Shown piece by piece: positions 5,959 through 55,816 of a stretch of 64,000 bases of DNA. Positions within the stretch are counted from its first letter, which is position 1. The number at the start of each line of letters is the position of its first letter. This DNA is from Mytilus edulis (Eukaryota). The notes under the pieces are model-generated. The model saw nothing but the letters and a program-made list of their open reading frames with translations, ran no database searches and was not told where the DNA came from. The stretch lies in contig NC_092344.1 of NCBI RefSeq assembly GCF_963676685.1, positions 65,162,001 to 65,226,000 on the forward strand. The letters are read 5' to 3'. Made by a program: the position numbers and the translations under genes.

Positions 5959-6088
5959 AAGGACTGCTGCCGTAGGCATGACATGTTTCTCGCAGGGAAT
6001 TCAAACATGTTAAAAATATCCAAAAGAAATTAAAAAATGTACGGTTTTGGTGTGTTTTTAACCTAATTTGTTATTCATATAATTATAG

Positions 6089-6444
6089 GAAACAAATATG
6101 TTCCTAGAGCAATTCTACTCGATTTGGAACCAGGAACCATGGACTCAGTACGATCGGGTCCATTTGGGGAACTTTTTCGACCTGACAACTACATATTTGG
6201 TCAGTCAGGAGCTGGAAACAACTGGGCCAAAGGTCATTACACGGAAGGAGCCGAATTGGTAGATACTGTCATGGATGTCATCCGAAGAGAGACGGAAACA
6301 TGCGATTGTCTACAAGGTTTCCAGATGGCGCATTCTTTGGGTGGAGGAACGGGATCTGGCATGGGAACATTATTGATCAGTAAAATCCGTGAAGAATATC
6401 CCGACAGGATAATGAACACATTTTCTGTGATGCCATCGCCAAAG
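6089..6444 (+). CDS. TUBB: Beta-tubulin coding exon ([24 protein letters not shown]...GGGTGSG...SVMPSPK)
   Basis: ttatag acceptor whose phase 1 matches the previous exon; aag|gtaata donor; contains the tubulin signature GGGTGSG. Confidence 0.97.
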
Positions 6445-6646
6445 GTAATAAACATGTATAATATTTTAGATTCTCTCGTGCAAACTAACAATGCCGCGGC
6501 AAACAATAGTTCACTAAACACAATATAGAAAAGTAAAGACCGAGCAACATGAACTAAAAAACTATGGATGATCTCAAGTGATTCGATAAGAAAGCAGATC
6601 CTGCTGAACATATTGCACGCGCCGTGTTGCTCATGGAAGTAAAAAC

Positions 6647-7050
6647 CTTACTTACTTTTTATTACTGCCCTTGTACGTCATAAGCGTGTAGGGCAGTAAC
6701 GACGATTTTCCACTTTTTTTTGGCCATTGGCAGTTATCTGTAATGTACCTCATGTCTGTTGATGTTTACTAGCTTCTTTCTCAACAGTTCTTCTCCATGT
6801 CATTATGGGTCTTCTTCTTATTTTACCTTCTGGGTCTAGGTGAGTGCTGTTTTTGTGATGTCCTTCTTGTCTTTTCGAAGGACATGTCCAAACAAACCAA
6901 AGCGTGTTTTCATTATAGATGTGGCTATATCTTGTTGTTTGCATCTGATAAGAAGGATCTCGTTTGATTTTTTTGTGGCCAAAAGATTCGCAACTCCTTC
7001 TCAGAGTTTTGGTATGGAATACAGACAGCTTTTACAAACATGGTTATACG
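6647..7050 (-). mobile_element. RTE-clade LINE 3' fragment (degenerate) in a tubulin intron
   Basis: The minus strand encodes GHVLRKDKKDITKTALT*T, then (after a frameshift) PEGKIRRRPIMTWRRTVEKE, the typical RTE ORF C-terminus. Short (TAAG)n tail at ~6647-6656. Confidence 0.7.
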
Positions 7051-7151
7051 TAAATAAAATTGTTTAAGCATATGTGCTTAGACCTCAGTATCAGAGCAAA
7101 CCAACTAAACAAAAGAAGAACATGTCTTAATAAAGATTACCCATCGATTAA

Positions 7152-8132
<981 letters not shown>

Positions 8133-16494: not shown

Positions 16495-18510
16495 AGAAAA
16501 ATGTTATCATTGCAAGATGAATGGTTTTGAGTCTGTAATTATGATGTTGCAGAAAAATGTTATCATTGCAAGATGAATGGTTTTGAGTCTGTAATTATGA
16601 TGCTACAGAAAAATGTTATCATTGCAAGATGAATGGTTTTGAGTCTGTTATTATGATGTTGCAGAAAAATGTTATCATTGCAAGATGAATGGTTTTGAGT
16701 CTGTAATTATGATGTTGCAGAAAAATGTTATCATTGCAAGATGAATGGTTTTGAGTCTGTAATTATGATGCTACAGAAAAATGTTATCATTGCAAGATGA
16801 ATGGTTTTGAGTCTGTAATTATGATGTTGCAGAAAAATGTTATCATTGCAAGATGAATGGTTTTGAGTCTGTAATTATGATGTTGCAGAAAAATGTTATC
16901 ATTGCAAGATGAATGGTTTTGAGTCTGTAATTATGATGCTACAGAAAAATGTTATCATTGCAAGATGAATGGTTTTGAGTCTGTTATTATGATGCTACAG
17001 AAAAATGTTATCATTGCAAGATGAATGGTTTTGAGTCTGTAATTATGATGTTGCAGAAAAATGTTATCATTGCAAGATGAATGGTTTTGAGTCTGTAATT
17101 ATGATGTTGCAGAAAAATGTTATCATTGCAAGATGAATGGTTTTGAGTCTGTAATTATGATGTTGCAGAAAAATGTTATCATTGCAAGATGAATGGTTTT
17201 GAGTCTGTAATTATGATGCTACAGAAAAATGTTATCATTGCAAGATGAATGGTTTTGAGTCTGTTATTATGATGTTGCAGAAAAATGTTATCATTGCAAG
17301 ATGAATGGTTTTGAGTCTGTTATTATGATGTTGCAGAAAAATGTTATCATTGCAAGATGAATGGTTTTGAGTCTGTTATTATGATGCTACAGAAAAATGT
17401 TATCATTGCAAGATGAATGGTTTTGAGTCTGTAATTATGATGTTGCAGAAAAATGTTATCATTGCAAGATGAATGGTTTTGAGTCTGTTATTATGATGTT
17501 GCAGAAAAATGTTATCATTGCAAGATGAATGGTTTTGAGTCTGTTATTATGATGCTACAGAAAAATGTTATCATTGCAAGATGAATGGTTTTGAGTCTGT
17601 AATTATGATGCTACAGAAAAATGTTATCATTGCAAGATGAATGGTTTTGAGTCTGTTATTATGATGCTACAGAAAAATGTTATCATTGCAAGATGAATGG
17701 TTTTGAGTCTGTAATTATGATGTTGCAGAAAAATGTTATCATTGCAAGATGAATGGTTTTGAGTCTGTTATTATGATGTTGCAGAAAAATGTTATCATTG
17801 CAAGATGAATGGTTTTGAGTCTGTTATTATGATGCTACAGAAAAATGTTATCATTGCAAGATGAATGGTTTTGAGTCTGTAATTATGATGTTGCAGAAAA
17901 ATGTTATCATTGCAAGATGAATGGTTTTGAGTCTGTTATTATGATGCTACAGAAAAATGTTATCATTGCAAGATGAATGGTTTTGAGTCTGTAATTATGA
18001 TGTTGCAGAAAAATGTTATCATTGCAAGATGAATGGTTTTGAGTCTGTTATTATGATGTTGCAGAAAAATGTTATCATTGCAAGATGAATGGTTTTGAGT
18101 CTGTAATTATGATGTTGCAGAAAAATGTTATCATTGCAAGATGAATGGTTTTGAGTCTGTTATTATGATGCTACAGAAAAATGTTATCATTGCAAGATGA
18201 ATGGTTTTGAGTCTGTAATTATGATGTTGCAGAAAAATGTTATCATTGCAAGATGAATGGTTTTGAGTCTGTTATTATGATGTTGCAGAAAAATGTTATC
18301 ATTGCAAGATGAATGGTTTTGAGTCTGTAATTATGATGTTGCAGAAAAATGTTATCATTGCAAGATGAATGGTTTTGAGTCTGTTATTATGATGTTGCAG
18401 AAAAATGTTATCATTGCAAGATGAATGGTTTTGAGTCTGTAATTATGATGTTGCAGAAAAATGTTATCATTGCAAGATGAATGGTTTTGAGTCTGTAATT
18501 ATGATGTTGA
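16495..18510. repeat. Minisatellite, 36 copies of a 56-bp unit AGAAAAATGTTATCATTGCAAGATGAATGGTTTTGAGTCTGT(A/T)ATTATGATG(TTG/CTA)C
   Basis: Exact 56-bp period counted from 16495; only two variable sites. Confidence 0.98.
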
Positions 18511-20343: not shown

Positions 20344-21467
20344 TCAAAGTGTTTTTGTTCTTTCGGTGAAAGAAGACGTATTAAGAACTTTCTCCGTGGC
20401 GACCTCAGCGATTCGTCCACTCTCATATGACACTGGCTGTCTAATGTTTTCATTGATATCATCACTATTTAGAATACATGTAGTACATTGAGTATGACAT
20501 TTCGAAGGTATTTGTTCTAGAAATTCGTTGCTAACTTCTTGATTGAAAATACATGTCTGACAACTATTAACATTGTGTATACTCCCATAATGCTTCGACA
20601 AGCTGCCATTTTCTGACACAACAATATTGAAGCCGTTCGATTTCTTTCTCCTCTCGCTAGAAGTTCTGCACACATCCGGTATTGAATGTATCTTCGTCGA
20701 TCCAGTACCAAAATGGTTTTCCGGATGCAAATTTAAACTGTTGCCCTTTTCATTCAGTTGATTTTGAAAATGTTGCTTTTGTATTAAGCCTTTTGAATTA
20801 TTGTGTCGAATATCCACATGTTTACGAGGTAATAAAGGATTCAAATCTTTATTAATCAATGGCGAAACGGAAGATGGACTAGGTGTCACAGGACTTGATA
20901 TACCAGAGTCACTTGAGCAAGCACGATTGAGTTTTCTAAAATTATCGGATGAGATATTCAATCGGAACGGATTTCGTAGTAACGTCCGGATTCGTTTTGA
21001 GCTTTGATGATGCGACAAGTAATCATCGGAACTGACCGAGTCGCACGGTTGAATCGAGACATGGCTGTTGTAGCTCGATGAAATACTATCACTACATGAT
21101 GAAATATCTGTTGACTTACTCTCTGAAGAACTTATTGAACTTATGTGTTCCGAGGAAGAACTTGTTTGCTTTTTAGGCATTGAAAGCTTTAGTTGCTTCC
21201 AGAACTTTTCTAGCTTTTTGGAATCAGATTCGCCTGGCCATTCAATGTACGTAACACTACTTAATATAGCCTTTAAGTTCTTGTCAATTTTCAAGTTCGA
21301 TATTTCCTCAAGTATAACTGGAATTATTCTATGTTTCATTTTTAACATTTCATGTTGTGCTTTCTGATATTCAAGTCGACACCATTCACTCTCAATATAA
21401 CTCTTTGAAATAACCATGATTGTTCTCCTGCTATCTTCAACAGCTCTGATGATATTGTTTGCAATTA
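20344..21467 (-). CDS. EGF-TM-TIR receptor, last exon: C-terminal part of TIR (IANNIIRAVEDSRRTIMVISKSYIESEWCRLE...FWKQL) plus Ser-rich tail
   Basis: ttttttccag acceptor in phase 1, matching the upstream TIR exon. WCxxE and box-3 FW motifs present. Open to TGA at 20346-20344. Confidence 0.92.
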
Positions 21468-24343
21468 CTGGAAAAAAGGAGAAACTCATATAAGAAAATC
21501 GTACTAAAGTTTTATTTATGTTTATATAACTATATATATGTATGTGCTTCTGTGTATGACTTTGTAGTTGGATTTGCTTATTTACTTCGGAATATATAGA
21601 TTGTTTTTTGTGCGATTCCATTCGAACGTTATATTTAAAAGCGTGTAATTGCTCACTATTTAGTGAAAATAGCCCCAAAGTACATGTATATGGATAATGC
21701 CCTTATACTTTTTTTTGTTACTGAAAATTTCTATTTAGAATATTTAACAATTATTGTTATATTTGTTCAAATATTCATTCTTTAAATGTTTTAGCCTTGC
21801 TTAATATAGTATGTGTACTTATAATTTAGACTAAATATTCAGATTGTTTACGGAATGTATACAATTTCGTATGCTTCGGTGTTTAATATATGTGTATTCA
21901 AACTGTGTAGTAACTGCAGAAATTATATTAAGTATGCAAAACATTGATCGTATAAATTAGAATCTTATTTTTGCGTGGATGAATATCAAGTTGTTTGGGT
22001 TTACTAGGTCGTCTGCTTCATGTTCAAATTTGTATAATCTCTAAACAAATGTACTGTCTTACGTAATCACATAAATAAATAGTCACGGATGTATTTTTTA
22101 ATTGGTAATAAGCATCAGACACAAAAAGCTCAGAAAGTTCTGCAGGAATGGATTTTATATTCCGTATTATACAATGTTCTAATAAAAGTAGGGTTTCAAA
22201 AATCCACCATCTCAGAAATGTATATAAGCATGCAATATAATTATTTAAAGGGCATTAGCTACGAAAATAACAAAACATCAATTAAAATATGATTTTTTTT
22301 TTGTTTCAAACATTTATTTAAAAAAAAGGAATATACAATTACTTTTCGCTTTTAAAGCAATTAGTTCAGTTAAATTTCGTGGAAATAAACAACACTTTTA
22401 TAATTGGTGCTTGTGTTATATTGGTGTTCCACTATTTCGGGTTATGTGGAGGGTTGGGCACCTGCTTACATGTTTTACCCCTCCACATTGTATGTGTGCC
22501 TGTACCAAGTCAGGAGCTTGTGATTGAGCGGTTGTTCCGTGTTGCTGTGATACATATTTTTTTTTCGTTCATTTATTTTTTGGCGGTCAGTTTTCTCGTT
22601 TGAATTTTTTTACATTTGACATTTTGGGGCCTTTTATATCTGACTATGTAATATGGTCTTTGCTCATTGTTGAAGGCAGTACGGTGACCTTTAGTTTTAA
22701 ATTTCCATGTCATTTGGTCTTTTGTGAAGAATTGTCTCATTGGCGATTATGCCACATCTTCTTTTTATACATACATGTAAAGCGATGATAGTATATAACT
22801 TGAAATGAAAGAGAAATAGAAAAAAAATCTTATTTTCCGATTACATGTGCATGACTATTTATTTTATATAAGCATGGGAAGTCATCAGTCTTCAGAGGTC
22901 ATCTCTATATATAATTTGATAGCGAATGGTCTAAAATACTCACGAAATAATGATTTAATATAAAAAATGCCTCTGTTGTTAATTGTTTCTTTAAGGCATA
23001 ATAATCAATTGAATATACGTTTTAGTATGTTATAAATCATATATGAGAATTTGGGTCATCGTCAAACATGAATTTGTCAGTTAATGCCCCTTTAATGTTA
23101 CAATCAACTCACGAAGTCCTTTTACTTGTAAAACCGTAAAAAGTGTTAAATTTGAACTCGCTTCTGGAAAATTTAAATTGAGATTATTTACTAGTTTACA
23201 GTATGCATAAATTTGTAGCTTTTTCACCTATAAGTGAAGTTTTTATTCAAATTAAACAAATTAACAGTGCACCGAGTACTGGTGACAGTTTACATGTATG
23301 TTAACTTATGCATGTAATTAACGGTCTTTTGGTGCTTTGGCGTTGACTTAAAAAAATAAGCACTCAATATAAAAGATAAGTTGCTTGCAAGTAAAAAATT
23401 TATGTTGCCAGTGTTCACGGAATTGGTGTCACTCACAAGGATGACAAAATCCGAAAGTTTGTTGAATGTTGATGAAACCTATCCGACTTTGAATATTGTA
23501 GATTGTTTACACTCACATTACTATTTAAAACAAATGATATCAAAATTATCATATTTTTTATCCGTGGTATACACTGCTGTTAGAGAGAATTTGAAAATCA
23601 ATAATTATGGCAATTGTAAATGAATTAATTTGAATTTGTGAGAGAAAAAAATCCAACATATTAAATTACAAGCTAGTAAATATAAATTTGATTAATACTC
23701 TTCATGTTTATTTTTGGCCCCGGAATGAGCATCCGAATTATTTCATGATTGAAGTTTTTAGCATTAAACATTTTGTGTTTCGACTTTTTGTTCTAAAATT
23801 AAAACATGGTTAAAACAATTTATTGGAGTGGTACTCTACTTAAAGATTTAGAAAATTGGCTTATTTGAATTCTAAGTAATAGCGCGCGATTATTTCAAAA
23901 CACCACATCTTCTTTGTTATTCATCTTGAAACGGAACTAGAAAATACCCTAATCTCTTCTACATGTACTTAAGATATTACTAATTATCCTTTAGATATGT
24001 TACTGGGAATTCATCTAGAAAATGTCTGATGAATGATCGTTAGAGGATGGTCATTTGATATTCTAATAGAGACCAGGAGGAGTTTTTGGGCAGATTGACT
24101 ATTTATTTTCATTTGTTGCTATGCTAGCTTATTTGTTTCGCAGCATTGTTGTGCTATTCACTATTGTATTAAATATTTCCTGTTACAAAATTTTCATTTT
24201 CATCCTAGTATCTTTAAGTTTTCATATTTCTCCAGTCTTCCGCCTAGACAATCAGAATGATGGTCGCCCGCTCAAACACTATCATCAAAACAGTACAAAT
24301 AATTTATTATCGACATGATTACTATTTCAAATATGTAACTTAC

Positions 24344-24487
24344 CATCTCCTGGAGTAAAGTCCCTGAAGTGCAGACAAAGCTTGTATCCCATTTCTAGCT
24401 CTAGTTTCGGATACAACTGTTTCAATACGAAATCTTGATCTGTCTTTGAAGACTTGTATGAGATGAAAGCGTCATAACTTTTCCCAT
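24344..24487 (-). CDS. EGF-TM-TIR receptor, first TIR exon (D-GKSYDAFISYKSSKTDQDFVLKQLYPKLELEMGYKLCLHFRDFTPGD)
   Basis: ttatag acceptor, g|gtaagt donor, 144 bp, phase 1-1. Contains TIR box 1 (YDAFISY) and box 2/BB loop (LCLHFRDFTPG). Absent from the ORF track. Confidence 0.95.
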
Positions 24488-24572
24488 CTATAATAAAAAT
24501 TGTACAAAATATAAACTGTCAGCTATTTAGAACTAAGGAAGATATTACGCCTTTAGTATACACATGTAATGT

Positions 24573-24802
24573 ATGAGGGTATGAATGTAAAGGGGGAAAT
24601 GGGGGGTGGGGGCATGTCTGTGTTCTTTAACTTGTTTATGCCATTTTTGTCTATTCTTTATACTTTTTGCCCATTATTCTCTATTCTTTATATGTTTGCA
24701 CCTTATTATTATTTATTCTTTATTTATTTTGTCTAATTTCCCTATTCTTTATAATTTTTGCTAGATTATTGTTTATTTTGTAAAACCCTATCACACCCTC
24801 AT
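24573..24802. mobile_element. Short MITE-like element with atgagggt/accctcat ends and internal tattcttt sub-repeats
   Basis: Inverted 8-bp ends. A related copy in opposite orientation lies at ~28965-29278. Confidence 0.5.
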
Positions 24803-25176
24803 GTATACATCCATAGGTATTATAACATTAAATATTGGTTGTCTTATTTTTTCCCTCGATTTATGCAATTTGGTAATAACGATAGATTTTTGAAAGCCTC
24901 AGTCTATCAAGTCATAATGTTGAATTATAATTTTATCCTCTACTATACGAGTTATCTCCCCTTATTTGGCAAAGTTGAAAAAAATCAATCAAACAAAAAA
25001 TGTTGTGTTTTATAGACAATACAGCCGTTAATATGACAAAACACATAATTGTCTATATTAACATGAAGTCTTACACTTGAACTACATAGAAATTTGCATA
25101 TTTCATTAAAGATCTAGTTTTATCTTTTACTTCAAACTAGCTTCATTAATGACGATAACGTATTGTTAAACATATT

Positions 25177-25460
25177 CATACGCTTGAAACACGCGTTTAT
25201 TGTTTGGTTGCCATATGAATGACGTACACAACACGTGTACTTATAGTCGCACTTTAAAAAACACGACAGCATACGTTCATATTGTAGAAACAAGAGACTT
25301 GAGCGTTTAAATCGTTTGGTTGTCTTCTGAATGACGTATAACACACAACAAATCATGTCCTTTTATATACACTCTATAAAACGACATCATACGTTCATAC
25401 TCTCAAAACACATGTCTTGCTTAATTAAATCGTTTGAATGACGTATAAAACGAATGTACT
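25177..25460. repeat. Three degenerate ~100-115 bp tandem units
   Basis: Recurrent catacg...tcgttt(ggttg)...tgaatgacgta motifs. Confidence 0.6.
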
Positions 25461-26685
25461 ACTTTAATTCACAAACACACAAAAAAAAACTGCTTCCATA
25501 CGTTTATATGAAAGACAGTCTGTTACTAAACTGTACCTTCGTACTGACATTTGTGTTTGTTATCCAAAACGAATGTCAAGTTATAATCATATAAACCGCT
25601 GTAATTGTGAATTTTTAATTACTTAACAGGTACAATCAAATTGCATGATATATAAGCTAACCGCATCGATGAACTTGTGGTAACGTCTTCACTAATAGTA
25701 AGAGCAGGGGAGGTCGCGCGTTCGACCCTTGGTGAATAATACATTTGCTGGTTTATAAGCCAATCCCATGGTTATTGAAAGTAGGAGAGAAAAAATGGCA
25801 GGATGGGAATCAAAATAATATCTGCGTTGGAATACTTTGTCAAATCACAGACTTATTACATAAATAATAAAAATCCGCATGCCGTTTTTGTATGTAACAG
25901 GATAGATGAAAAATAAACATCACAAAATATTTTTTTTCATTTTGAATATCTTTGGAATATTGCTTGTTGAACGTGAATTAGAATCCTTTCATAACTTATA
26001 TAGCAAGCCTTAGTTATGTTTTCTCTTTTAATTGCCCCCCCCCCCCCCCAAATAGACTTTGAAATCAGAAGATGTGGTAGAATTTTCGAAGAGACAACTG
26101 TACAGCACAACATAAGAAAAAAAGGTAAAAATCAGCTAAAAATGGCTTTACACAAAAGATTGGTACGGAAAACATAAACAAAACAAACTTGCATAAAAAC
26201 AGAAGACACATAGTACTGTCTAGTAGTTACCTAACATTTAACTAGCTCAAAGCAAATTGCACCTTATATATAAATACCCGGAGTAATTAAAGCTTATTAC
26301 TATACGTAATTTCATGTATTTTTTTTGTCTGTATGTTGACCGATGGTTGTTCCTTTAAATTTGGACTTTCGTTGACAGTTGTGTCTTTGACTATCCTTGT
26401 TTTTGTAATTAACTATGCTTTCGGTTAAGTCATACACATACCTACATGGCTATGGTCTTAAGAAAAAAATCCACTCATACATTTTTTCATGAATATCTTT
26501 TATATATTTAAGTAAATTCTCTCAGTTTAAAATTTTAATTTTTAGTAAATATTAGTATTATAAAACAAGTTATCATATGATGTTATTTAATTGAAATAGA
26601 ATGCGAAACTTCCAGGCAAATTAATTTTTAAATGAAAAGGATAAAATGCAGAACTTCCAATATATTAGCATAACATTTAGCTTAC

Positions 26686-26844
26686 CATCATCTTCGTAAT
26701 GTTGAAAATAATGTAAAATCTTCATAACAAACAGTCTTCTCTTTTTCCAAATACAGTAAGGTAATATAACCATCAGGCCAATAAGGAGTGAACCTATGGC
26801 AACACACACCCCAGTCACGTACCAGTGGTACAGTATTTCGTCTT
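26686..26844 (-). CDS. EGF-TM-TIR receptor, transmembrane exon (E-DEILYHWYVTGVCVAIGSLLIGLMVILPYCIWKKRRLFVMKILHYFQHYEDD)
   Basis: tttttttcag acceptor, g|gtaagc donor, 159 bp, phase 1-1. A ~23-aa hydrophobic helix is followed by a KKRR stop-transfer cluster. Confidence 0.92.
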
Positions 26845-29800
26845 CTGAAAAAAAAGTTAAACAATATTGGTTTTGTATTTTTTCCCTAAATTTGTGTCCG
26901 CCATATTGGGATGATCGTAATTGCAGTTACGATCATCACGTTGACACCAGTGATTTTTTATTTATTATGGTATATGTTGACAGTTTGTTTCAACAAACTT
27001 GCAAGCATCGCTTTGTAAATTTACCAATCACAGAAACAAAATTCTACTGAGTAATATGTGAACTGAACTTAAACGTGTTTGTTCTTCTTTTAGTGTTTCT
27101 TTAATATGCATTAGCCCTACGGATTAAAAAGGTTATTCCACTTTTATAGGAGTCGTTTAGTATTTAAAGCCTCTTTCTGACTTATAAAGGTTCAAAGAAT
27201 TTTAGGTTAAATAGGTAAATTTTTCTTACTTTATTCTTTACAATTTTGATATAACTAAGAGGGTTTTTTTCTTTCAAGGGGGTTATTGAAGCATGCTTTA
27301 AGTTATCTCAACTGAACCTTCGTAAATGCTAGCTAGGACCGTCTAATGCTACCATCGGTCATTGCTGCTAAATTTAAATTTGTTACTTATGATGTTTTCG
27401 TGAAATATTGCTTTGTTTTATTGTCCTTTGTTTCCTTCTGGATTCGAAAGACGTGGGCTGTACTTTGAAATAATTCTTTTAAACTATGTGGTTCAAATTT
27501 CTTGAAATTTTTACTTTTTTTTCAAACGGTCAAAAGTTGTCAAACTTTAAGAAAATTAAACTAGCCAATTATGTTTCAAAGTGTTGGGTACCCATTTAAT
27601 TCAACGTACAAAGTAAGTTTACCAACTGTCACATTTTTATCTTAACAGGTTTATCATAGTTAAAGTACATAAGTACTTCATCAACTAAACTATCCTTAAA
27701 CTGAATATACTTTCATTAATTAAACTAAGCGAGTTGTCCCTTTTCATTATTTATCAATGTTCACCACAACTGGCATACAACATTTAGTTCTAATTGTTTT
27801 AACTGAAACTAGTATTTTTCATCTCTTTCAAATGTCAGCGAAAATGATAGATATAGAAAAGACATAGAAGTATTATTCAAAGTTACTGGTTATAAATTAA
27901 AAACACATTTTGTAACAACGGCTGTATTTTGCTTTTTTAGGTCATGTAGGAAATAAACATCGGTTTTACTTTCAAATTGTAAAAATAATATGGTTAGAAA
28001 TGGTTAGTTGGGAATTTATGTTTCTTCTGCTTTTTTACACGTTCATGTTATATATTGTGGAGAAATTGTGACTTTGATAGTGCTAAATGCAAAATGGTAG
28101 ACAAAAATGGTTAACCGTCACAAAAGACATGATAAGGGTTGGTAGTCAACTGGGGCATTTCTTTCTATTATACATAATTCGTTAGACTTTGTGACATAAA
28201 TAGTACCAATGAAAATTGGTGACAAAAATAGGGATTTGATTATAAACTGAGTGGATCGGGTGACTTAAAAAGTAAAATCATAAAAATACTGTGCTCCGTG
28301 GAAAATTCAAAAAGGAAAATGGCAAAATCAAAAGCTCAAACACATCAAACGAATGGATAACAACTGTCATATTGACTTAGAACAGGCATTTTCTTATGTA
28401 GAAAACGGTGTATTAAACCTGGTTTTATAGCTAGCTAAACCTCTCACTTTTATGACAGTCACATCAAATCCCATTAAATTGACAACGATGTGTGAATATA
28501 ACACACATACGTTTATGTTTGGCCTTATCATTATATGAAAACGTGCCTATTTGATCGAAAAATAACCTTAAAAACACATGCATCATTTCCACACGATATT
28601 TCTACTTGTAAATGTTAGTCATGAATGACGTTCAGGAAACTACATGGTATTATTATTACATAAATGCAAAAATAGCGCTTTGTCATGTTGATGAATTGTT
28701 TTTTTCAGAAGTTATCGTATAATTTATTGAACTTATATTTTCTATTTTATCTCCTTAATCTCGTTTATTATGATTTATTTCGAATTGGTAATAAATTTAA
28801 GTGTTTTAATCATTTCAGTGCATATTTAAATCGGATCCAACTAAAAACTAAATATGAATTTACCACACATTAATTAAAATGTCGGCATGTGATAACTACT
28901 TAACTTGAAATTTTTGCCTTTATTTTGATCCTATAAAAACAGATTCCCTTACAGTAACTGTACATGTATAAGGGTTTAGATGAGGGTTTTAAAAAAAATG
29001 ATAAAAATAATGGCCAAAAAATAAAGAGAATAGAAAGCCTTGAACCAAAAGGAAAAATAAAAGAGTATAATGAGGTACTACGATATAATCTATAAAAAAT
29101 AATGGGCAAAAGATTTAACGAATAGAGAAGAATGAACTGAAAAAAAAAGAAAAAGAATAACGAGGTGCTGAAATATATGGAATAGAAAATAATATACAAA
29201 GAATATAAATAATAGACAAAAATATTATAAAGAATTAAAAGATACAGAGATGAAAATCCCCCATCTAGATCCTCCTTAATTCCTTTTATTGTTAAACATG
29301 AACATGTGCAGAAAGTAGCCTATATGGATGGTATATTTTCATTTTTTTTTTTTACTTAATAAGCTTCTTGTTATTAAATTTTAAAATATCAAACTTTAAC
29401 TATTACGAATGGATAAAATTTACTATCAACAGGATATTGTGGTTGAATCTATAATTTCAAAATATGACATCTGGGAGTGGACAACCTTGTAGCAGAACGT
29501 ATGATATTATTTATGAAATATATCACCTGTTTTTATAGCACCTTACATTTCACAATTAGTATCAAGTAATAACAATCCAATGATGTAAAAGTAAGGGATT
29601 GAAATACAGCAACATAACGATACTAGCATACAAAACGATATCTAGGTCAAATTCATTTATCTAAACGAAAAGGAGTCTATACAAAATACACTGCTGTCGA
29701 AAGTCTAAAAAAAGTTGTAAATACATTAAACAGAAACTATATGCTATGAACAGCAAGTTCTCCATACAAAAAAACATGGAGTTATGACATAGGACATATC

Positions 29801-30040
29801 AATGCATACGTAAATGCATGTTTATAGTATGTTCCTATTGTATATTCATGTATTGACAATTGTTCATTTCAACTGCTCAAGGAGAACTTATGTTAAGGCG
29901 AGGTGTTTATGTCCTATAAGTTCGTATTAAAATGACATTCCTCGATAATATATTGTTTGTTTCGGTTATAACACACTTATATAATTTGTAGTGCAATTCT
30001 TATGTTTATTTTGTTTATTGATATAAAAATACTGTGCAGA

Positions 30041-30265
30041 TAAATAAAGGCAACAGTAGTATACCGCTGTTCAAATCTCATAAATCAATGGACAAAAAAC
30101 AAAATAGGGGTAACAAACTAAAACCGAGGGAAACGCATTAAATATAAGAGGAGAACAACGACACTACACTAAAATGTAACACACACAGAAACGGACCAAG
30201 CATCAGACAAAATCCCACGAGAATAACAAATATAACATCAAAACCAAATACATGAATTTGGAAGT
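30041..30265 (+). repeat. Dispersed repeat copy (aaataaaggcaacagtagtataccgctgttcaaa family)
   Basis: Similar sequence at ~9495-9640 and, inverted, at ~34470-34565. Confidence 0.65.
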
Positions 30266-30337
30266 ATTCCAATTGTATCATATACCCTTTCTTGACGAAG
30301 TGTCTAATAATACAAGTGAGGATCATATATTACCTAC

Positions 30338-31151
30338 CATTTGGAGCAACTATTTTGGTTGTACAGTAGGGTCCAGTGAAATCAGAATCGCACTTGCATT
30401 TAGAGGTGCCATTTATTTTGTCAATTATTTTACAGCTCCCATGCAGTCCACAATCTCTCGTACATCTTTCATCACAAAAGGAACCAGTATAGCCAAATTC
30501 ACAAAGACAAAAAAAACTCTTCCGTTTCCCTTCTGATTTAGTTTTTGGTTCAATTTTTATGCACACACCCCGTTCACATGTCAAGCCTCCACCACAATTG
30601 GAATTTAAATCAGAGCAAGTATAATTATAACTCTCTATGTAACTTTCAACACATTTCCCTCCATTTTGACAAGTATTGCGACATTCATTCCATAACGTTT
30701 GTCGACTTTGAAAGTTTTCGGGATTGTTATGAATTGTTGCATTTCCTTCAGATGTTTCGTTGTATCGGTTTGGATCGGTTACTGGTACAAATAACCGATC
30801 CGTGAAAGAGCTGTTCGGAACTCTGTCATCTTGTTTTGTAGCAGTATGGCGACGGCGAGACATGAAATGATCACTTGACCTAGTATGATTTTTTATGTCA
30901 TCTATTTCGATGTCACACCATCTTCCAGTAGTATTCACAGGACAAACACAGCTTGCAAAACATGTACGACTATCCAAGACACAATGTCCACGGTTACAAT
31001 TTGTAAAAACACAAAAGTCTAAACAATTTTTTCGAGGCGGTCGAAATTCGGGTTTTCCAACAGATCGTATACGAATAATTGAAGAATTTGTTATATCAAT
31101 ATAAATAATAATCGCATATACTACATGCAGCCAAGAACAATAAATAACCAT
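30338..31151 (-). CDS. EGF-TM-TIR receptor, first coding exon: signal peptide and Cys-rich ectodomain with 3 complete and 1 partial EGF-like repeats
   Basis: ATG at 31151 followed by hydrophobic MVIYCSWLHVVYAIIIYI. EGF C-terminal signatures CVCPVNTTGRWC, CLCEFGYTGSFC and CKCDSDFTGPYC; partial repeat CQNGGKC. The g|gtaggt donor is in phase with the TM exon. Confidence 0.88.
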
Positions 31152-32600: not shown

Positions 32601-33733
32601 CAAAAGAGGGACGAACGATACCAGAGGGACAGTCAAACTCATAAATCGAAAATAAACTGACAACGCCATGGCTAAAAATGAAAAGGACAAACAGGCAAAC
32701 AATAGTACACATAACACAACATAGAAAACTAAAGAATAAACAACACGAACCCCACCAAAAACTAGGGGTGATCTCCGGTGCTCCGGAAGGGTAAGCAGAT
32801 CCTGCTCCACATGTGGCACCCGTCGTGTTGCTTATGAGATAACAAATCCGGTAAATAGTCTAATTCGGTAGGTCACATTTATGAAAGGGAAGGGGATTGT
32901 AGTTACGACGTAAGGAACATATCCGATATCATTTGTGAAACGGTTATTCCATAACGGTCAACCAACTCGTGATGGCGTCCGTAAAATTTACGAAGAGATG
33001 ATTTCAACTTCACCATTTGGAACTCTTGATTTAATAGCTTTCTTGTGAGCAACAACCCTCTATCAAGAAAATCATGATAGGAAATGCAAGCACGGGAATA
33101 TCGTATCAATTGGGAGATATATACCCCGTATGCAGGTGCTGCTGGAATGGTGCTACTTAGAAATGGAAAGTTCACAATTGGAAAGCTGAAATCATCTCTT
33201 TTGTCGTAAAGTTTTGTTTTCAATCGACCCTCATTGTCAATTTCTAGATGTAAGTCAAGATATGAGGCCGAGTGTATCTGTTGTATCCTTTATCTCTAGT
33301 TCAATGGGATAGATGCGTTCGACATAGTCACCAAATTTTGAATTATTTAGTGAAAGAACATAATCTATATAGCGGAAAGTAGAGTTAAAGGATATTGCTA
33401 ACTTTTATCTTTCTTCCTAATAAGTTTCTGTATAAAGTCAGCCCCATTATAATAAAGAAACAAGTCGGCAAGAAGAGGGGCACAATTCGTTCACATTAGA
33501 ATGACGATAGTCTGTTGAAAAACACGTCCTCCGAACGTAACAAATATGTTGTCAATCAAGAAATCAAGCATCTTGATAATGTCAGTTTCAGAGATTTTTT
33601 TGTTTGAATCAGAGTGATCCTTTACAAAGTAGGATGTATCCCTTCCGAAGACAAGATACTTGTATCTTCGTTGGCCATTCTTTTTTATGAAACAAAGCAA
33701 TACCAACTCTTTCAATTTGTCTTTTAGTTGCAA
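32601..33733 (-). mobile_element. 5'-truncated, inactivated Penelope-like retroelement (RT C-terminal half plus 3' repeat)
   Basis: DFLIDNIFVTFGGRVFQQT..M*TNCAPLLADLFL..FRYIDY..KLYDKRDDFSFPIVNFPFLSS..AYGVYISQLIRYSR. In-frame stop, frameshifts, and YIDD changed to YIDY. Confidence 0.85.
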
Positions 33734-36574
33734 CCTACAGATCAGAACTGGGAACCAGTATGTAAACAAAATTTATTTTCTATGAATATTCTAAATCTCC
33801 CCAAAAGAGGCGTGGTTTGAGAAACAGCTGTACTCATAGTATTTACAAAGTGCAACCTAAAGACGGCTGTATAATTTTGCATTAGTAATATAAAAAATCA
33901 TCACCGTTTTACACTACTATAACTAATGCTTAATTGTAAAATCTACTACATCGTCTCTTTAAACATAGCTTTTATTTCTACAAAAATGAGTAACGTAGAT
34001 ACAAATTACATGTTTTAGATGATAAAAGAACATCAATTTGCAAAGAACTACGCCGATTCTTAAAAAAATCCCATAAAAGACGAGATCGCCAAAATCCAAA
34101 AAACAAGAATCTATTTCAAGTTTGATGATTCAACATTCTTTTTTTAGCAGAAATATAGCATCTGATATGAAATGTTACGATCTTGCATATTAACACTATA
34201 CTGACTCCGGCAACATACGTATGCTTGTTGTCCATCAATTTAATGTGTTTGAGCTTTTGATTTTTCCTTTCGATTAGGGACTTTCATATTTCCCCAGAGT
34301 TCAGTATTATTGTGATTTTACTTTTTACGATTAGATTGATGTGTTTGAGCTTTTGATTTTTGCCGTTTTATTATTGAATTTTCATTACGAGTTTTCCTCG
34401 GAGCTCGGTATTTTTGTTATTTTTCTATTTACCCTGTCGACACATCTGATCTTGTCCCTTTCTGGAGTTCATGCGATTCCTTCGGTTTAAGTTTGTCGCT
34501 TGATTTGTGTCTCCCTTTAATCAAATTACGAGATTTGAACATCAGTAACATAGTGTCACATTTATCAGCTATATGTGACGTTAAGATAAAGGTCTACTCT
34601 GGAGAACATGGAAGAACACATTGGCATTATACGGTCTAAAGAAGACCAAATTTTTTGTATACCAGACTCTTTTGATATGTTTTTGTAAGGGTGACACCTT
34701 TACTAATTTGAATGAGATACACAAACTGTCGTATCCAGGGTAACTTTTCATGTAACTAAAGCAAATTGAACACCTAATAGAATAAGGAAGCACTCTCCAC
34801 CAAAGTATCAGATTAAATTTGCTTGCATATTCAATAAAAACCCCTGCCATATCAATTAGCAAAGCATATAAACCCCTTTTCCGATGTATTTATGAGATTT
34901 GTTTTGAGAAAATGATACCATTTTAAGGACTGATAATTGTCTTATTTAATAAATACAGAGTATTGAGTAGAGTCAATAAAAGGATCAAAACGAGAAAACG
35001 TAAACGAGCTGTTCGACCAAATATCTTATGTAATAAATTATTGGCCGCGAATAAGACATATCTAGCAACTATCACCGTGTTCACCTTATGCTTAGATGTT
35101 CAGATTATAAAAAAAGTAGACTAACAAAAATTTTCACGAACTGAAAAAAGAAATTCAAAACGGAAAATCCTATATGAAATGGCAAAATCAAAAGTTCAAA
35201 CACAACTTACAAAAGGAAAACAACTGTCACATTCCTGACTTGATACATACATTTCCTTATGTAAAAAATGTTGATTACACTTTGTTTGTATACAAACGTA
35301 CGACGATAGTTGGTCGATAATCATATAATGATGCTGTTTGGGTAAACGAGATAGTCACTTTAATGAAGATTGTTTATTTCTATGCCACGAGGAGCCCGAC
35401 ACATTTATTTTGATGCATGCCATTCCCTATTTCATGAAGTAGAACATTGGAGATATATTCATGGCTGCTCAAAATATTATTAAACACATCATAGATACTA
35501 GAAAAGTTTGCACACCACACTCGCATTTCGTCAAAAGACCAATCAGTATCACTGAAATAAAAAAAAATGTTTACAAGGCCACATAAAGTTGACGAGCATT
35601 GTCAACCGAAAATGACGAATATGGTGTTAAAACCAATAAAGTTATACATTCCTGGTCTTTTATTAGCTCATTAAACATAGAAAAATTAAAAAGTTGGTAT
35701 GATTGCTGTTACGATCAAGTAACAAATATGATTTTTTGCAATGAAATGCAAATACAAAAAGTCCAAGCTATCGTTTACAAAAAACTTAAACTATTAAAGT
35801 GTCACATTTCCAGAATTTGATGTTAACGAAGTTGAAAAAAGTTATTTACGTGAAAAGTCTGAAGTTATGTGCATGTTTAACATATGAGTAACACTTTTTT
35901 TGAAAACCGAAGTCCCTAGGCGGTCATTTTGTTTTAAACAGTAATGTTTTGGATTCCGCATACCAAAATGGGATTTAAGCTTCTTATGTTGGAACAAGTC
36001 CCTTTTACTAATGCTCAAACACTCCAGCAATCGTGATTAAAGGCCTTACTATAATTGGTAATGATTTCATGTGTCTTTGGTAAGAGGCAACCTGAATCGA
36101 AGATACAAAACAACTCAAATGAATGTTTGGTATGTCTATAATCCTATGCATATGATGGTCAGTGATAGTGTTTTAAATATGAACACTTCCAAATTTTCGA
36201 AAATTAAGTAAAACATTTTCTGTGTCAGAACTATTATCTCTTAAGAAATTACGTTGAGTGCAGAGTTTTATCATTATGTTATTGAAGGCGATATTTTAAT
36301 GTGCCTGAAAAAATGAAACCCAAAATAATTTTTAAATGTCATTGTAGCTATATTTCTATAATTTGTTTGTATTTTCACCGTTTTTTCTTTTGGTCCAGAC
36401 TTTGTCTGTTTGTATTGGACTAAAGACAGGAATTTTGTTGCATAGTTTTTAAACGTAATTCAATTTTAAAAATATCGTTGCGTGAAATAATACTTATTGT
36501 CGTACGCGTAAATCAGTTTTTTGTGTGGGAGAATGTTTTAATTGAATAATACACTGGCGCCGTAAGGTACAATT

Positions 36575-38574: not shown

Positions 38575-39310
38575 GTAAGTAAGTAAGTAAGTAAAACTTT
38601 ATTTGGATTCGGCATATTGACAAACAATACAAACATAAGCTCTAATGAGCTTTTCACCGAATATAAAAACATATGCAATAACAAATAAAACAAGGCATGC
38701 AGCATGCAATAAATAATAAGAAACAGCACCAAAAATTAACTCTAAGCAAATAGATAATACATGTATCTTGCAAAATACCAAAACATATATATGAAGCACT
38801 AAAATTTTTAAAAATTTTCTGTTTAAAAATTAATTTTTAAATAATTTATGAATTATAAAGTAAAAAATTTCAAATCTTTCAAATTTTAAAAGGTAAAAAA
38901 CAAAATTTCAGTTGCAACGCAGGCTGTTAATGCAACATGAAAAGCATAAATATTGTAACACAAAGTTATCTACAGGCAGAGCAAAAACATTCTGTTCCAC
39001 TCCAGGACTGTACAAGACTCTTAAAATGTGAGAAGCTGTTAACAGTCCTGAAGTGGTCAGGTAAGCTATTCCATAAAGTAGCAGCAGCAAAACTAAAAGA
39101 TTTTTTTCCATATGAGGTAGTTCTTACCTGTGGTACATCCAAAATATTGCTGTATCTAAAAGAATATTTAGTGTGTTTAATTTTTATTAAATTTTGTAAA
39201 CATACAGGAGCCAAATTATTTAAAATTTTATAAGTCTCAAGTGCCATTGTCCTGATGCGTCTTACTTGTAGGGTTGGAACCTTTGCGTTCTCAAGAAGAG
39301 TTTCAGAGGA
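38575..39310 (-). mobile_element. CR1/L2-group LINE 3' end
   Basis: ORF2 C-terminus LETYKILNNLAP...YSFR...YGKKSFSFAAATLWNSLP, then a 3' UTR, AATAAA and a (TTAC)n tail at 38575-38602. Confidence 0.85.
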
Positions 39311-42300
39311 TGATAATTATTCAACAATGATGTAGTCATATAAGTATTACAAACCCTACAAAATATAACAAGATACATATTAAACACATTTATCTAAAAA
39401 TACTATATCATACTGTGTTACAGTTATTATAACATTACTGCAGATCAACATAATATCAGAACATTGAATGTTTATAGTTCTTATACAATATCTATACACA
39501 AGGTGACATGACATGCCTGATGATAATTAACACTTGCAAATATTCACTCATCGTTCATATAAAATCATCAGCCTTGACAATTTAACATACTACTATAATG
39601 TCAAGATCATATAACAAAGCACACTCTTTCATAAAGCTGGGAATCTTACCAAAATGAATGCAAGAAACATTCATTTCAAAGTTAAGGATCCAGTTAATCC
39701 AAGACACCTCAAAGAGTACAAAATGTAACTTACCATATAAAGTCATGATGTCCTGTTCCAGAATGAATTCCATCACTATACTAATCCATAGAACTTATGG
39801 AATTACTAATCAAACACAATATAAAGTCTATGAGCACAAAGTGCATCAAAACATACAAATATATCAGGATCACAACAAATACATCAATCCTCCATTACTG
39901 TTTTCAAAACTACCACCAAAACTGGGGGCAAGGCTTAATAAACCAATCAGAATACAAGAAAACCTATACACTCTAGTGAACAGTGAGTACTGATAGTAAA
40001 ATCAATAATAGGTAAATGCTACAAGGTAAACAGTTAGATTTTATGGATCAATGAATAATCAATAGGCAATCAATGGAATAAAGGTAAACTTAAGTAAACT
40101 GCTCTGCAAATGAAAGAATATAATGAATGGTGTCTCAGACTAACCTATAAAACATATAAAATATATAAATGATTAATATGATAAAAATCCACACTACCAC
40201 ATAACCAACAGAATATTTTATGGCTTATATAAAATCCAATTTATTTGAAAGAGAAATAGTCAAGTTTAAGCTGTTAGTATATTATTTTTCATTTCATACT
40301 AATAAAAGCTACGATATAGGTCCAAGGACACAATTATCGTCCTATGTTTTTCTTTGCATAAAAAAAGTTCCAATGACATTGGATTCCTTATATAAAATGG
40401 TTTGTTAGAAGCGATTTAGCAAAAAATGTTGAACAACATTTTAATAACCGAGGAACAAGTTGAAACAAGAGACCTAATTTTTAACTGTCTCTTGTTTAGA
40501 ATCAATTGTAAACATTGATTTATTAAAAAGTATTGCAAAATGATGCATGAGAAGATATTCAGGAAGTAATTTTAAAGAGAAAAAAAGGAATCATATCTAC
40601 ATATGTAACATATGGACACATGAAGCGGATTCAAACTTTAAGGTAGCCAGTGTAATGTGTAGTTCCTACTTGAAGTGGCTACATTTATCTTGTGCAAGTC
40701 TAAAACAACTTCCAAAGGCAAAAAAATGGTTTTTTAACAATTGCATATGTTACATCATATGTGTCCATTTGAAATTCGTAGCAAACAACTTTTAATATTG
40801 TCTGTTTTGTGATGCAGTTTTACATAGCAATATTTTTATCACAAGCAGTAGGATATTTAAACCATAGATTTTAATACACAGATTTGAAAATCGACTTTTT
40901 ATATAAATATGTTAGAAACAAATATATTTAATGATGTATATACAAATGTGTTTTTATGCTTTTAATAAATATTATAAAGCTATGCATTATTTATGTATGT
41001 ACATGTTCAATATCTTATTTTTGATTGTTCTGTATTTTCATTGCTTGGTATTGTGATAAATGATTTAAATTATTATTCAGCTTTTTTTTTTCTTTCTCTA
41101 TTAATAACATCAATCAACATTTTTATTCAGTGCCGGCAAAATGATTTTTTTTTATTTTGCCTGTGACGGCTATATCGCAAATTTTCTATTTTGCCGGTGC
41201 CGGTCAAATAGCCACTGCCATAAAAGTTTGGGTGCTGAATCTTTATGTTAAGTAGTGATTTGGTCCAGTTAACGGGGTTAAAATAGGTCAAATTTTATTA
41301 CGTCTGAAGCTGTCAAACTGAATTTTAGACTCCCTTAACACAGAATTGTCAATATTTTGAGTTAGAGCTGGTAGAAGTGTCTTTAATTTAGATATTATTT
41401 GTGCCACTAGTAGTGCATTACACTGTAAAAATCTTTTTGAGATAGAGCAGGTGCGATTCTTTCAATTTGAATTCATTGTCTAAAAGAAATACACTACAAA
41501 ATAACTGTGTTCTCGAGGCATATACTTGGTCGTTATTTGTTTGACGAAAGGTTAAAACAAAAAGTGTCGAGGTACTGAGGTCGTATCTTAAAATTTACAT
41601 TTCATTCTGTAATTTGTATTTTAGAATATGTATTCACTGTACATTGGATTTTTGAAAATAATCTACAGTTAGAACAATAGACTTACAGCAGAGAAATGTA
41701 TTCACATCTGATCTGTAATTTTGTGTTTTTTTTTCCATTTATTGAACAGTTATCTCATGGAGTTTAGTTATTTTCTAATATATAATTTCAGTGTTGTATA
41801 ACAGGGATATAGGACGAGCTTTGTCGTGACTCATAAACTAGGGAATAAACAACAAAGCCCCAATTGGAAGTCCACATATTATATTTACATTTGAATTCAT
41901 ATATATCAACATTTAATGTGCAAAGCAAATTAAATATCAAATTACAAAACAATCAAGTCAACTCTGGTATTGGTCCTTATACATAAACTCGACGTCCGAA
42001 CTTGGATCTCGTCGGATTTTACTTAGAATATATGTTGTGACTGTCAATGTTTAAATATATAACCCCGTATTTTAAAGCACTCAAATTTTATTCACCGATA
42101 AATGTTTAGGGAATAGAATAGAAAGACAATTACGTCATCTCTATAATATTTTTCAACTTATGGTTTTAAAACCTATCAATTGTAACCATAATATAACAGA
42201 TACATAGATAAATAATAAACAATCCATAAAGGTTGAATAAGCGTGACACCGGGACGGGTCCGTATTGCATAACATATAAATAAGGAATTTGACACGTGAA

Positions 42301-50450: not shown

Positions 50451-52574
50451 AACTTTACTTCAAAATATGTTGTCAAAATGTAGTAGATCAAACCTTATTG
50501 GAGCAAGTATAGTTTACTGGTACGTTTTTAGAAAAAATATAATTAATTATTACTGTAATCGTCATTTTGTTATTATAATTATTATTTTCATCAGTTTTTC
50601 AATGACGGTTACGACATTAATTCATGTGTATAAGGTAATTTATGGCTGCAGATAGCTCAATTCGGGAACTTTACTATCATATCTTCAGTGTTCATGAAAT
50701 GAAAGGTATGTTTAGCTTTTGAAACAGGCAACGTCATCATAAACAATATTTTCAAACAATAATAATATGGATATTTCGATAAGAATATGAGCATTTCTGG
50801 CAGATTTGTAAGCATTAACTGAAAAAAAATCATCCATGTTAAGTCAATCTGAGACGAAAATAAAATTGGAAAAAAATATTGTCCGTTTTTAAAGTTAAAT
50901 TTAATTTGATTTTGACTTTTGTACAAGCTGACATTTGAAATTTATTTTTAATAAATAAATCAAAATCACAAATATATGAGTGATCTCTATATTCTTGGAC
51001 AGATCACATGAGAAAATAACCAAACTTTAAATACCCGACGAATAATGAATATTTGATCGGACCTTTAATGAAAATAACTTTTTTCGACCACAGATAATAA
51101 ATACATATTGTTTTGCGTATGATGCATGGTACGTATATTTATATTACATCTCATTAGTTTTTTTACAGTTATACGCTGATTAATTTTGTGATAACTACAA
51201 CAATACGTATGCAGAAAATTCAAAAAAAAAAATCGCAACCAAATTAAAGCGTCGGCTTTTGATAACATGGGTTACATTTACTGTACAAAAAAACGCATTA
51301 TACATTTCTTTACAAAATTTCATTGAGTGTACTTCAAATCTATTTCTACATCAATAATTTGGCATATTGAGCTTAATCTACAAACATGGATGTTATACAG
51401 GATACTGAACAAAAACATGTAAAAAAATTAGGCTACACCATAAAAGATATTTTGTCTTTTGGTGATGACGTGATAATCCATTAGTTCGACAACTAATGTT
51501 GTGCATCCCTTACGCATGGATCGAATCCAATTTTTTAGTTTGAACTATTAGACAAACATATTGCAACGCTAAGACTGATTCTGTCAAATGATGTTGGCGT
51601 CTTAAAAGTTAGACCCACTTTGACTTGACTTTGACCATCATGAAATATAAATGTTGTTTTGAGTAAGTAAATCCACTGTTACCATTGATGTATTGAGTCT
51701 GGAATTTTTCTTCTCTCACTCAGTCGATCAATAACATTGATCATATGCAGCTGCACAATATCGTCTATTTTATTTGCGGTGTTTAAATGTCTATGAAAAT
51801 TGACTAACACATACGATAGTTTCCACAGCGACAGTTGTAGATTATCGTTGGTCATCTCAACGAGATTGATTTTCTCGCTCTCCGTACGACGAAAGTGAGA
51901 AAAGTAATCGAGTTTACATAGTCAATGATAATCTGTTTATCGCTATTTTGCTTATGATGATGCTGATGTTTACATTGACAAGGGCACGTGTTCCCTTAGT
52001 TTCTATTGTTAATTATTTTATCGTAATATTTAATTAAATAGCGATAATTGGAATATACAAAACGTTCGTTAGAACGCCTGTTTATGCAATGGTTGTAGCA
52101 GTGACTTTTCGATTACATAGATAAAACACAAACTTCTTCCGATCATAAACTAGAAAAGTTATGTTTAGTCTAAACCACGGATTAAATCTTCAGCTTATGT
52201 TTGACACCTATCATTTTCACGAAGTTGTGCTACTTTGACCGTTGAATTTTCGTTGACATAAGTTTAAGTTTTTTTTCAGTTTAATAATGGCCAAAGACAT
52301 TTGATTTTGTTTACAATATTAGAATACCTGAATTTCACAGTAATGATGAAAATCGCCTGATTAACAACAACTTTTTGTACAGTATAGTTTCACGGGTGAA
52401 TTGACCAAAGGTTTCCCGTGGTAAACATGAACTGTGTATCCTCACGATAATAGCAACATTCATCTTTCAGCTCTTAAATAATACACTTTGCAATTGGTTA
52501 AAAATGTAGACGAAGTGATATCTTAACATATACAAATTACTTATCTACATTTTTATTCATTCAGGGACTAAAAA

Positions 52575-52833
52575 ATGTATGCACAGTATTTGAAACGTTT
52601 ATCACGGGGTACAGAGGAGGACAAACCCACTGGTAAAAATAAAGGAAGTAGAACTGGGTCAGATCAATTTGTCTTGAATCCAGTTTCAAGCCCACCTAAC
52701 AGCAAAGTAGAAGATGTTGTCATCAGTGGTGTTTCATGTAGACTTCCAGAATCTGACAATATTGAAGAATTTAAACAGCATTTGATAAATAAAGATGACA
52801 TGGTGACAGATGATGAAAGAAGATGGCCAAAAG
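52575..52833 (+). CDS. FASN: Fatty acid synthase-like (type I FAS/PKS) coding exon 1, KS N-terminus
   Basis: attcag acceptor at 52564, ATG at 52575; [21 protein letters not shown]...[13 protein letters not shown]; g|gtttga donor. Confidence 0.9.
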
Positions 52834-53052
52834 GTTTGAAATGTGTCTTTCTTTAATGCATACGCTTTTCTCACATTTCTTGAGCGGTTTGTGAAAAAAA
52901 CAATTATCATCACTTGTGAAATATCTCTTTTTCCTATCTGAATTTCCTATTGTGACGTCCTGAAAAGGGAGACTATTTCTGATGACGTCACATATAAAAA
53001 CACAAGTTTCTGCAAATCTTTAAAAAGGACGAACAAAAATCATTAGAGAAAC

Positions 53053-53220
53053 AGATTCTACCACTGTTACTCGTGCATTACGATATTTCTCCGCTGTCAA
53101 TAGTTAAATTTTAATTATTGAAAAAGCTCAGCAAGCCTTTCGCTTTAAATGATCTTAAATGTTAAAAACTGTTTCGAGTTGAGAAATATCGTAACACACT
53201 CGTCGCAGTGATGGAATCTA
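53053..53220. repeat. Imperfect long palindrome in the FAS intron
   Basis: agattc..ccactg...ttacgatatttctc versus gagaaatatcgtaa...cagtg..ggaatct. A similar structure lies at ~51840-51934. Confidence 0.65.
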
Positions 53221-55663: not shown

Positions 55664-55816
55664 GACTTCATGGCCTACCTGCAAGAATGGGAAAACTTAA
55701 GGATATTACCAAGTTTGATGCAGAATTCTTTAGTATTCACCAAAAGCAGGCCAATAGTATGGACCCTCAATTAAGATTACTATTTGAAGTAACCTATGAA
55801 TCTATCATTGATGCTG
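55664..55816 (+). CDS. FASN: FAS-like coding exon 2 ([23 protein letters not shown]...[20 protein letters not shown])
   Basis: tttcag acceptor, g|gtatgt donor, 153 bp, phase 1-1; KS motifs FDAxFF and MDPQxR. Confidence 0.95.

Follow-up and report, generated by a model that had tools for sequence, protein, structure and literature searches.

The EGF-TIR class of proteins was named in the oyster (figure legend of PMC4346834), and two Aplysia genes, LOC101855416 and LOC101856027, are listed as EGF-TIR in Table 5 of PMC9334734; the architecture is therefore already known. That legend and that table give EGF-TIR as a domain class only, which the Aplysia paper places among adaptors; neither exon structure nor Ig paralogues nor a link to the interleukin-1 receptor (IL-1R) family is mentioned there. 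A gene with the same architecture lies in a 64,000-nucleotide stretch of the Mytilus edulis genome (contig NC_092344.1, positions 65,162,001 to 65,226,000; hereafter the window, meaning the whole stretch analysed), and the exon structure of this gene is the subject of the present study. Among other invertebrate TIR receptors, separate origins of the Ig-TIR proteins of Nematostella have been left open (PMC1896004), and the question of a shared or a parallel IL-1R-like origin is unsettled because short TIR trees lack resolution. In a preprint (bioRxiv 10.1101/2025.07.17.662885), IL-1anc cytokines are reported from bivalves, intron phase is applied to the ligands and ambulacrarian Ig-TIR genes are linked to IL-1anc, with receptor ancestry left open. 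TIR intron positions are not given in PMC7144542, PMC4090809, PMC9643328 or PMC12688222, and a link of EGF-TIR exon structure or of receptor TIR introns to IL-1Rs was not found in the literature searched, outside which lay subscription papers and the bioRxiv supplements.

In this study, both introns associated with the TIR domain of the mussel gene (introns 2 and 3 below) were found to coincide in codon and phase with introns of vertebrate IL-1R-family genes. Because both lie at IL-1R codons, descent from the same ancient receptor core, with the outer domains swapped, is likely, and the cassette formed by the transmembrane (TM) segment and the TIR domain probably shares its ancestry with vertebrate IL-1 receptors rather than with Toll-like receptors (TLRs). 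The gene, referred to here as the EGF-TM-TIR gene, occupies window positions 20344-31151 on the minus strand, with four coding exons and an open frame of 746 amino acids, arranged as follows.

30338..31151, minus strand: coding exon 1, 814 nt; likely signal peptide, three to four EGF-like Cys modules and a spacer, with a phase-1 GT donor at its end
26845..30337, minus strand: intron 1, phase 1, GT-AG; junction codon Glu272
26686..26844, minus strand: exon 2, 159 nt; TM helix (approximately residues 279-303) and juxtamembrane segment, both ends phase 1
24488..26685, minus strand: intron 2, phase 1, GT-AG; in codon Asp325 (D-GKSYDAF), directly before TIR box 1
24344..24487, minus strand: exon 3 (TIR-A), 144 nt; box 1 to the BB loop (Pro370)
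21468..24343, minus strand: intron 3, phase 1, GT-AG; in codon Val373 after RDFTPGD, that is, BB-loop Pro370+3
20344..21467, minus strand: exon 4 (TIR-B and tail), 1124 nt; the remaining TIR (to approximately residue 470), a Ser-rich stretch, a 276-residue tail and the stop codon

Exon 1 was delimited from the reading frame, hydropathy, a start shared with an orthologue and the Cys positions. The whole frame aligns colinearly, at 87% identity, with M. californianus LOC127717416, and the M. edulis protein model P0042 is nearly identical to it across the TM segment, TIR domain and tail. Exon 1 matches EGF_TEN with an E value of 8e-6, under the curated Pfam cut-off, and the EGF cut-offs are passed by several orthologues; the TIR domain of LOC127717416 scores far over its own cut-off. 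The encoded protein has a single TM helix and a cytoplasmic TIR domain in which the BB-loop proline (Pro370) is intact and helix alphaC carries W-C-x-x-E, a TLR-like feature. No Pfam match to an Ig domain was obtained in exon 1 or in the orthologue, and a Pfam scan of the protein found no leucine-rich repeat (LRR) ectodomain; as it is without Ig domains, the gene stands outside the IL-1R family in the strict sense. NADase activity of the TIR domain was also considered, the Glu of W-C-x-x-E being present, yet it is held to be unlikely in view of work on TLR and IL-1R TIR domains.

Splicing was checked using contigs of sequencing runs that are guessed to be RNA, none being annotated as such, with a large run of genomic-DNA-like behaviour (X15), whose contigs lie inside the introns, as a comparison. 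The junction 24487->26686 (CT..AC on the plus strand) is joined in four of four runs, from four studies. Positions 21467 and 24344 are consecutive within single contigs of runs X2 and X6, and positions 26844 and 30338 are consecutive within a single contig of X6 and to within 5 nt in X2; furthermore, a loose contig end at 26845 continues into exon 1 sequence. The introns, the reading frame and the splicing confirm that this locus is a real spliced mussel gene. An earlier note on this DNA had placed phase-1 introns in the Asp codon of D-GKSYDAF and after RDFTPGD, with the TM segment on its own exon, and the frame, the GT-AG sites and the contigs bear this out; the span given there (21467..26844) does lie inside the gene, but it reaches only from the TM exon to where the last exon begins. 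A second spliced contig was observed in X2 and X6, approximately 8-10% divergent in the EGF and TM exons (26688-26844 and 30338-30520, with a 1-nt gap) and with zero differences in the first TIR exon; it may represent a divergent allele, a related species or an unplaced copy.

The comparison with vertebrate genes was made separately for the two introns. For intron 2, 120 IL1RL1-type proteins were used, many of which are isoform models without a TM segment. In 22 of these proteins Tyr (16) or Asn (6) stands ahead of G-K-I-Y, whereas 94 of the 98 others have Asp there. When full-length and TM-less models of the same species or genus were paired, the residue before G-K-I/T-Y was found to be a hybrid, made of one upstream-exon base plus 'AY', in ten of 14 pairs (with the substitutions S>N, S/L/C>Y and G/A>D); three of the remaining pairs had no anchor and one was uninformative. 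These hybrid residues place a phase-1 intron in the Asp codon before TIR box 1, and intron 2 of the mussel gene therefore agrees with amniote IL1RL1 in both codon and phase. For intron 3, the human IL1RAPL1 variant c.1372+1G>T (PMC6249203, Table 1) corresponds to phase 1 in codon 458. The BB-loop Pro carries number 53 in the chain of structure 1t3g, and the Thr-Tyr pair follows at 56-57; with a TIR start at 403 and Tyr459 as given by Y459X (PMC3221541), this sets the IL1RAPL1 intron at Pro455+3, just as Val373 stands to Pro370 in the mussel protein. In IL1RAP, exons 12 and 12b swap everything from about helix alphaB onward (PMC9213720), and this boundary agrees with intron 3 approximately rather than exactly; the last exon spans alphaB to the C terminus in AcP and AcPb as in the mussel gene. 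The equivalence of intron positions proposed in the earlier note thus holds for the first TIR intron in IL1RL1, for the second in IL1RAPL1 and approximately in IL1RAP. In addition, the best PDB match of TIR-A is IL-1RAcP (7fcc, TIR residues 1-45), which aligns without gaps, whereas the TLR alignments shown need them. With the vertebrate IL-1R family the mussel gene shares its type I membrane topology, a separate phase-1 exon for the TM segment, both TIR introns and the D-G-K-x-Y-D start of the TIR domain; it differs from that family in having an EGF rather than an Ig ectodomain and a TIR domain that is nearer to TLR1/2 in raw score.

The same cassette recurs in the M. edulis genome. In a genome search with the last exon, seven other loci scored above every TLR-like match. 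Three of these, on contig C1, consist of an EGF exon, a TM exon and two TIR exons, and three on contig C4 (p4-p6) have two Ig V-set exons, which is the IL-1R architecture, followed by a TM exon, two TIR exons and a short tail of approximately 20-25 residues. Both TIR introns lie at the same codons, with AG/GT sites, in all six modelled paralogues (TIR-A is 144 nt long, or 138 nt in one), and intron 1 is the point at which the EGF and Ig ectodomains diverge. The idea of EGF repeats in place of Ig domains, put forward previously for this gene, is made concrete by these Ig-bearing paralogues with the same TIR exons. As a control, 45 TLR-like loci (a few places being counted twice) were taken from the best 150 matches, with MyD88, SARM and intron-bearing Toll genes lying outside the set. 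The intron-2 site is uninterrupted in all 45 and the intron-3 site in 44; the exceptional locus has a 1-nt frameshift (an 11-nt gap where 12 were expected) and no intron. When bird IL1RL1 was used as a query against the genome it matched uninterrupted TLR-like stretches only, and a Pfam IL1 search of the genome returned no matches, its controls being blank too.

The EGF-type paralogues form a cluster at G000:C1:120928000-120989000 (L032-L038), in which one of the three genes is inverted and one has a long reverse-transcriptase-like element inside its last intron. The Ig-type paralogues form a tandem cluster at G000:C4:5907500-5952000 (L041-L045), one of them having a GC donor after the TM exon. 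The seventh locus, at G000:C4:93810700-93811850 (L007, L048), is a near-identical copy of the last exon of one Ig-TIR gene with its flanks, 88 Mb away; no upstream exons were found there, and the locus may be a partial duplication or an assembly artefact.

Relatives were found in bivalves and gastropods (41 matches in one search and 60 in another), and a family profile run against 1.84 billion representatives added cephalopods, Capitella, Lingula, hemichordates and echinoderms among its best 150 matches, where the taxon and ectodomain assignments rest on 30 named proteins, with no cnidarian among these 30. The nearest non-molluscan relatives among the matches listed are annelid, brachiopod, hemichordate and echinoderm receptors. 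Molluscan and Capitella members have EGF ectodomains, those of hemichordates and echinoderms have Ig, either alone or combined with EGF, and the Lingula protein has a mucin-like stalk. Ig-TIR proteins of hemichordates and echinoderms are among the nearest non-molluscan matches; Mytilus has its two-Ig paralogues, and the window gene is without Ig. The HYR-type ectodomains of hemichordates also have EGF-like and Ig-like parts. Five hemichordate proteins (P0234, P0236, P0241, P0255 and P0258) were observed to be TM-TIR receptors with an N-terminal HYR domain (Pfam) and, by eye, EGF-like, Ig-like and cadherin-like parts, which is an unusual architecture for this family. One relative has been automatically annotated as 'interleukin-18 receptor 1-like', and the ESM Atlas returned generic TIR clusters of both LRR and Ig types. 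An exon-start fragment, P0295, could not be assigned to deuterostomes, having scores equal to those of molluscan rows, and was dropped.

The most probable of the alternatives accepts the shared ancestry and questions the role, which would be inhibitory, accessory or of the adhesion type, as for SIGIRR, IL-1RAcPb or IL1RAPL1; instead of activating NF-kB, the protein would act via its tail or by sequestration of adaptors. EGF ectodomains suit cell-contact ligands, and the 276-residue tail would fit such a role. Regulatory members of the IL-1R family have long tails (PMC3705552), and the TIR domain and tail of IL1RAPL1 bind RhoGAP2 (PMC3221541). However, the AcPb tail itself is described as not inhibitory in section 9 of PMC9213720, the BB-loop proline of the mussel protein is intact, the region from the juxtamembrane segment through the TIR domain is 60-74% identical across most molluscan orthologues, and tails range from approximately 20 to more than 300 residues among family members. 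Such a role is possible rather than probable. The long tail after the TIR domain that had been likened to those of SIGIRR and IL1RAPL is present in this gene, but it is not family-wide, as the Ig paralogues show.

The main rival on ancestry itself, which we consider unlikely, holds that the TIR domains of all animal receptors had these introns ancestrally and that TLRs lost them, for example by retroposition, so that the homology would be real without any special kinship to IL-1Rs; chance or parallel gain of the introns is ranked lower, as less likely still. The TIR fold and the BB-loop proline are shared with TLRs, the top raw scores are to TIR domains of TLR1/2/6/15, and the control described above comprised intronless TLR loci only. 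The window gene differs from TLRs in the absence of LRRs, in its TIR introns, which the 45 TLR-like loci lack, and in its position in trees. For the latter, 88 TIR rows were assembled, of which 18 redundant or truncated rows were dropped for a 70-row tree and seven long or truncated rows for an 81-row tree; LRRs were confirmed in 12 of 15 TLR-labelled proteins scanned, and for the Mytilus rows the TLR label was given on the basis of long open frames. In the 70-row careful tree, the 30 TLR-type rows are separated from all non-LRR receptors plus five vertebrate IL-1R rows (97/91), and the Mytilus Ig genes group with two EGF genes inside the EGF clade (98/92). The same split of TLR and non-LRR rows is found in both careful trees, the invertebrate non-LRR group reaches 90/82 in the 81-row tree, and Aplysia LOC101856027 (P0247), which is matched by the family profile, falls within this group in both. 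A single clade of all Ig-bearing receptors was rejected by the approximately unbiased (AU) test (p=0.003), and joining the spiralian members to the 17 nearest TLRs gave p=0.04; the TLR subsets used in AU tests (these 17 and the 13 distant ones below) were selected after the tree was seen. A profile of 112 vertebrate IL1RL1/IL18R1 TIR domains also favours the non-LRR family, with a median of 78 bits for 39 non-LRR invertebrate rows versus 50 for 43 TLR-type rows, and 83 bits for the window gene versus 70 for the best TLR. Furthermore, a spacing of 37 between box 1 and the BB loop is seen in 23 of 35 non-LRR rows (four others were unscored) and in none of the 30 TLR rows. Together with the gap-free match to IL-1RAcP, the profile, the spacing and the repeated split argue against introns primitive for all receptor TIR domains, as do the introns of human MYD88, which we take to lie at other codons.

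Several points weigh against kinship with IL-1Rs, and some of them favour the primitive-intron account. The vertebrate intron positions were obtained indirectly, the first from isoform models of one gene and the second from a single variant name in another. The vertebrate rows in the trees are IL1RL1 and one IL18R1 only, on a long branch; the trees are unrooted, without outgroup, cnidarian or amphioxus rows, and their non-molluscan rows were picked as family-profile matches. The split between TLR and non-LRR rows drops to 80/0 in the 81-row tree, a quick tree leaves the separation of TLRs from non-LRR receptors and IL-1Rs unresolved, and placing vertebrate IL-1Rs with 13 distant TLRs was not rejected by the AU test (p=0.30). 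The TIR domain keeps the TLR-like W-C-x-x-E, and against solved structures the TIR domains of TLR1/2/6/15 beat those of IL-1Rs, both with the mussel sequence (80 versus 70-48 bits) and with the family profile (114 versus 94-65 bits), which could be explained by faster evolution of IL-1Rs. Finally, amphioxus and anemone Ig-TIR proteins have been described as having arisen in parallel (PMC2858798), and published trees place them apart from vertebrate IL-1Rs (PMC2858798; PMC1896004). With regard to the phylogeny suggested in the earlier note, the TIR domain of the window gene lies outside the TLR groups in every tree built, but sequence alone leaves the position of vertebrate IL-1Rs unfixed. As the introns align and the TIR domain is not inside TLRs, a relationship to the IL-1R cytoplasmic module, as that note had proposed, is supported.

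Modular membrane proteins often have phase-1 introns at the borders of their domains. A parallel origin, in which EGF and Ig ectodomains separately acquired a TLR-derived TIR domain and the agreement of the introns is due to chance or to preferred insertion sites, is the published reading for Ig-TIR proteins (PMC2858798) and is in keeping with the gain of Ig more than once even here (a single Ig clade being rejected), but it is most improbable, as it requires two exact coincidences of codon and phase, one of them mid-domain (approximately one in 450 positions before site bias, by our own estimate), no tree nests the gene in TLRs, the 17 nearest TLRs are disfavoured as partners, and relatives are present in both spiralians and ambulacrarians.

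Elsewhere in the window, a tandem array with a unit of approximately 51 bp (window approximately 17000-18510, its start lying before 17000) is found directly downstream of the EGF-TM-TIR gene. Exons of a tubulin gene, with Pfam Tubulin and Tubulin_C and of beta type by sequence, lie at 6067-8132 on the plus strand, and ketoacyl-synthase domain exons at 52572-58690, also on the plus strand, probably begin a gene for a fatty-acid or polyketide synthase. Broken frames resembling the ends of retroelement reverse transcriptases occur on the minus strand at 32900-33770 and 38966-39316, neither giving a Pfam match at E 0.001.

Returning to shared ancestry with IL-1Rs, the best explanation overall, and a fairly likely one, is that the gene encodes an EGF-TM-TIR receptor whose TM-TIR cassette is shared by descent with IL-1Rs and which is predicted to act in signalling as a scaffold for MyD88 when clustered by a ligand. 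The family of non-LRR TIR receptors, of bilaterian or older origin, would have retained a TM exon bounded by phase-1 introns together with two TIR exons, and its phase-1 ectodomain exons (EGF, Ig and HYR) would have been swapped at the phase-1 intron that precedes the TM exon. The two-Ig genes of Mytilus would then derive from an EGF-bearing paralogue, and vertebrate IL-1Rs would be one fixed Ig version of the cassette family. The MyD88-scaffold mechanism, drawn from knowledge of the family, is moderately likely: a ligand, probably a protein, would pair two receptors, either identical or paralogous, and the paired TIR domains, with the BB-loop proline intact, would nucleate MyD88-IRAK with output to NF-kB/MAPK, the long tail being a putative docking or regulatory region.

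The wider proposal, which is slightly favoured, is that IL-1Rs are a branch of an ancient bilaterian non-LRR TIR family with a fixed three-exon TM-TIR cassette that was joined, through repeated shuffling, to EGF, Ig, HYR and mucin-like ectodomains; molluscan EGF-TIR proteins would be true relatives of IL-1Rs, mussels would have re-invented a two-Ig IL-1R from an EGF receptor through the exchange of exons, and the two introns would tell IL-1R kin from look-alikes. The two intron positions are a character independent of TIR trees that can be scored in any annotated genome, and their match challenges the published view of invertebrate Ig-TIR proteins as unrelated parallel inventions. If the introns hold across phyla, the receptor core would be older than, and separable from, the Ig ectodomain, and the two-Ig paralogues of the mussel would be concrete candidate receptors for the IL-1anc cytokines reported in bivalves.

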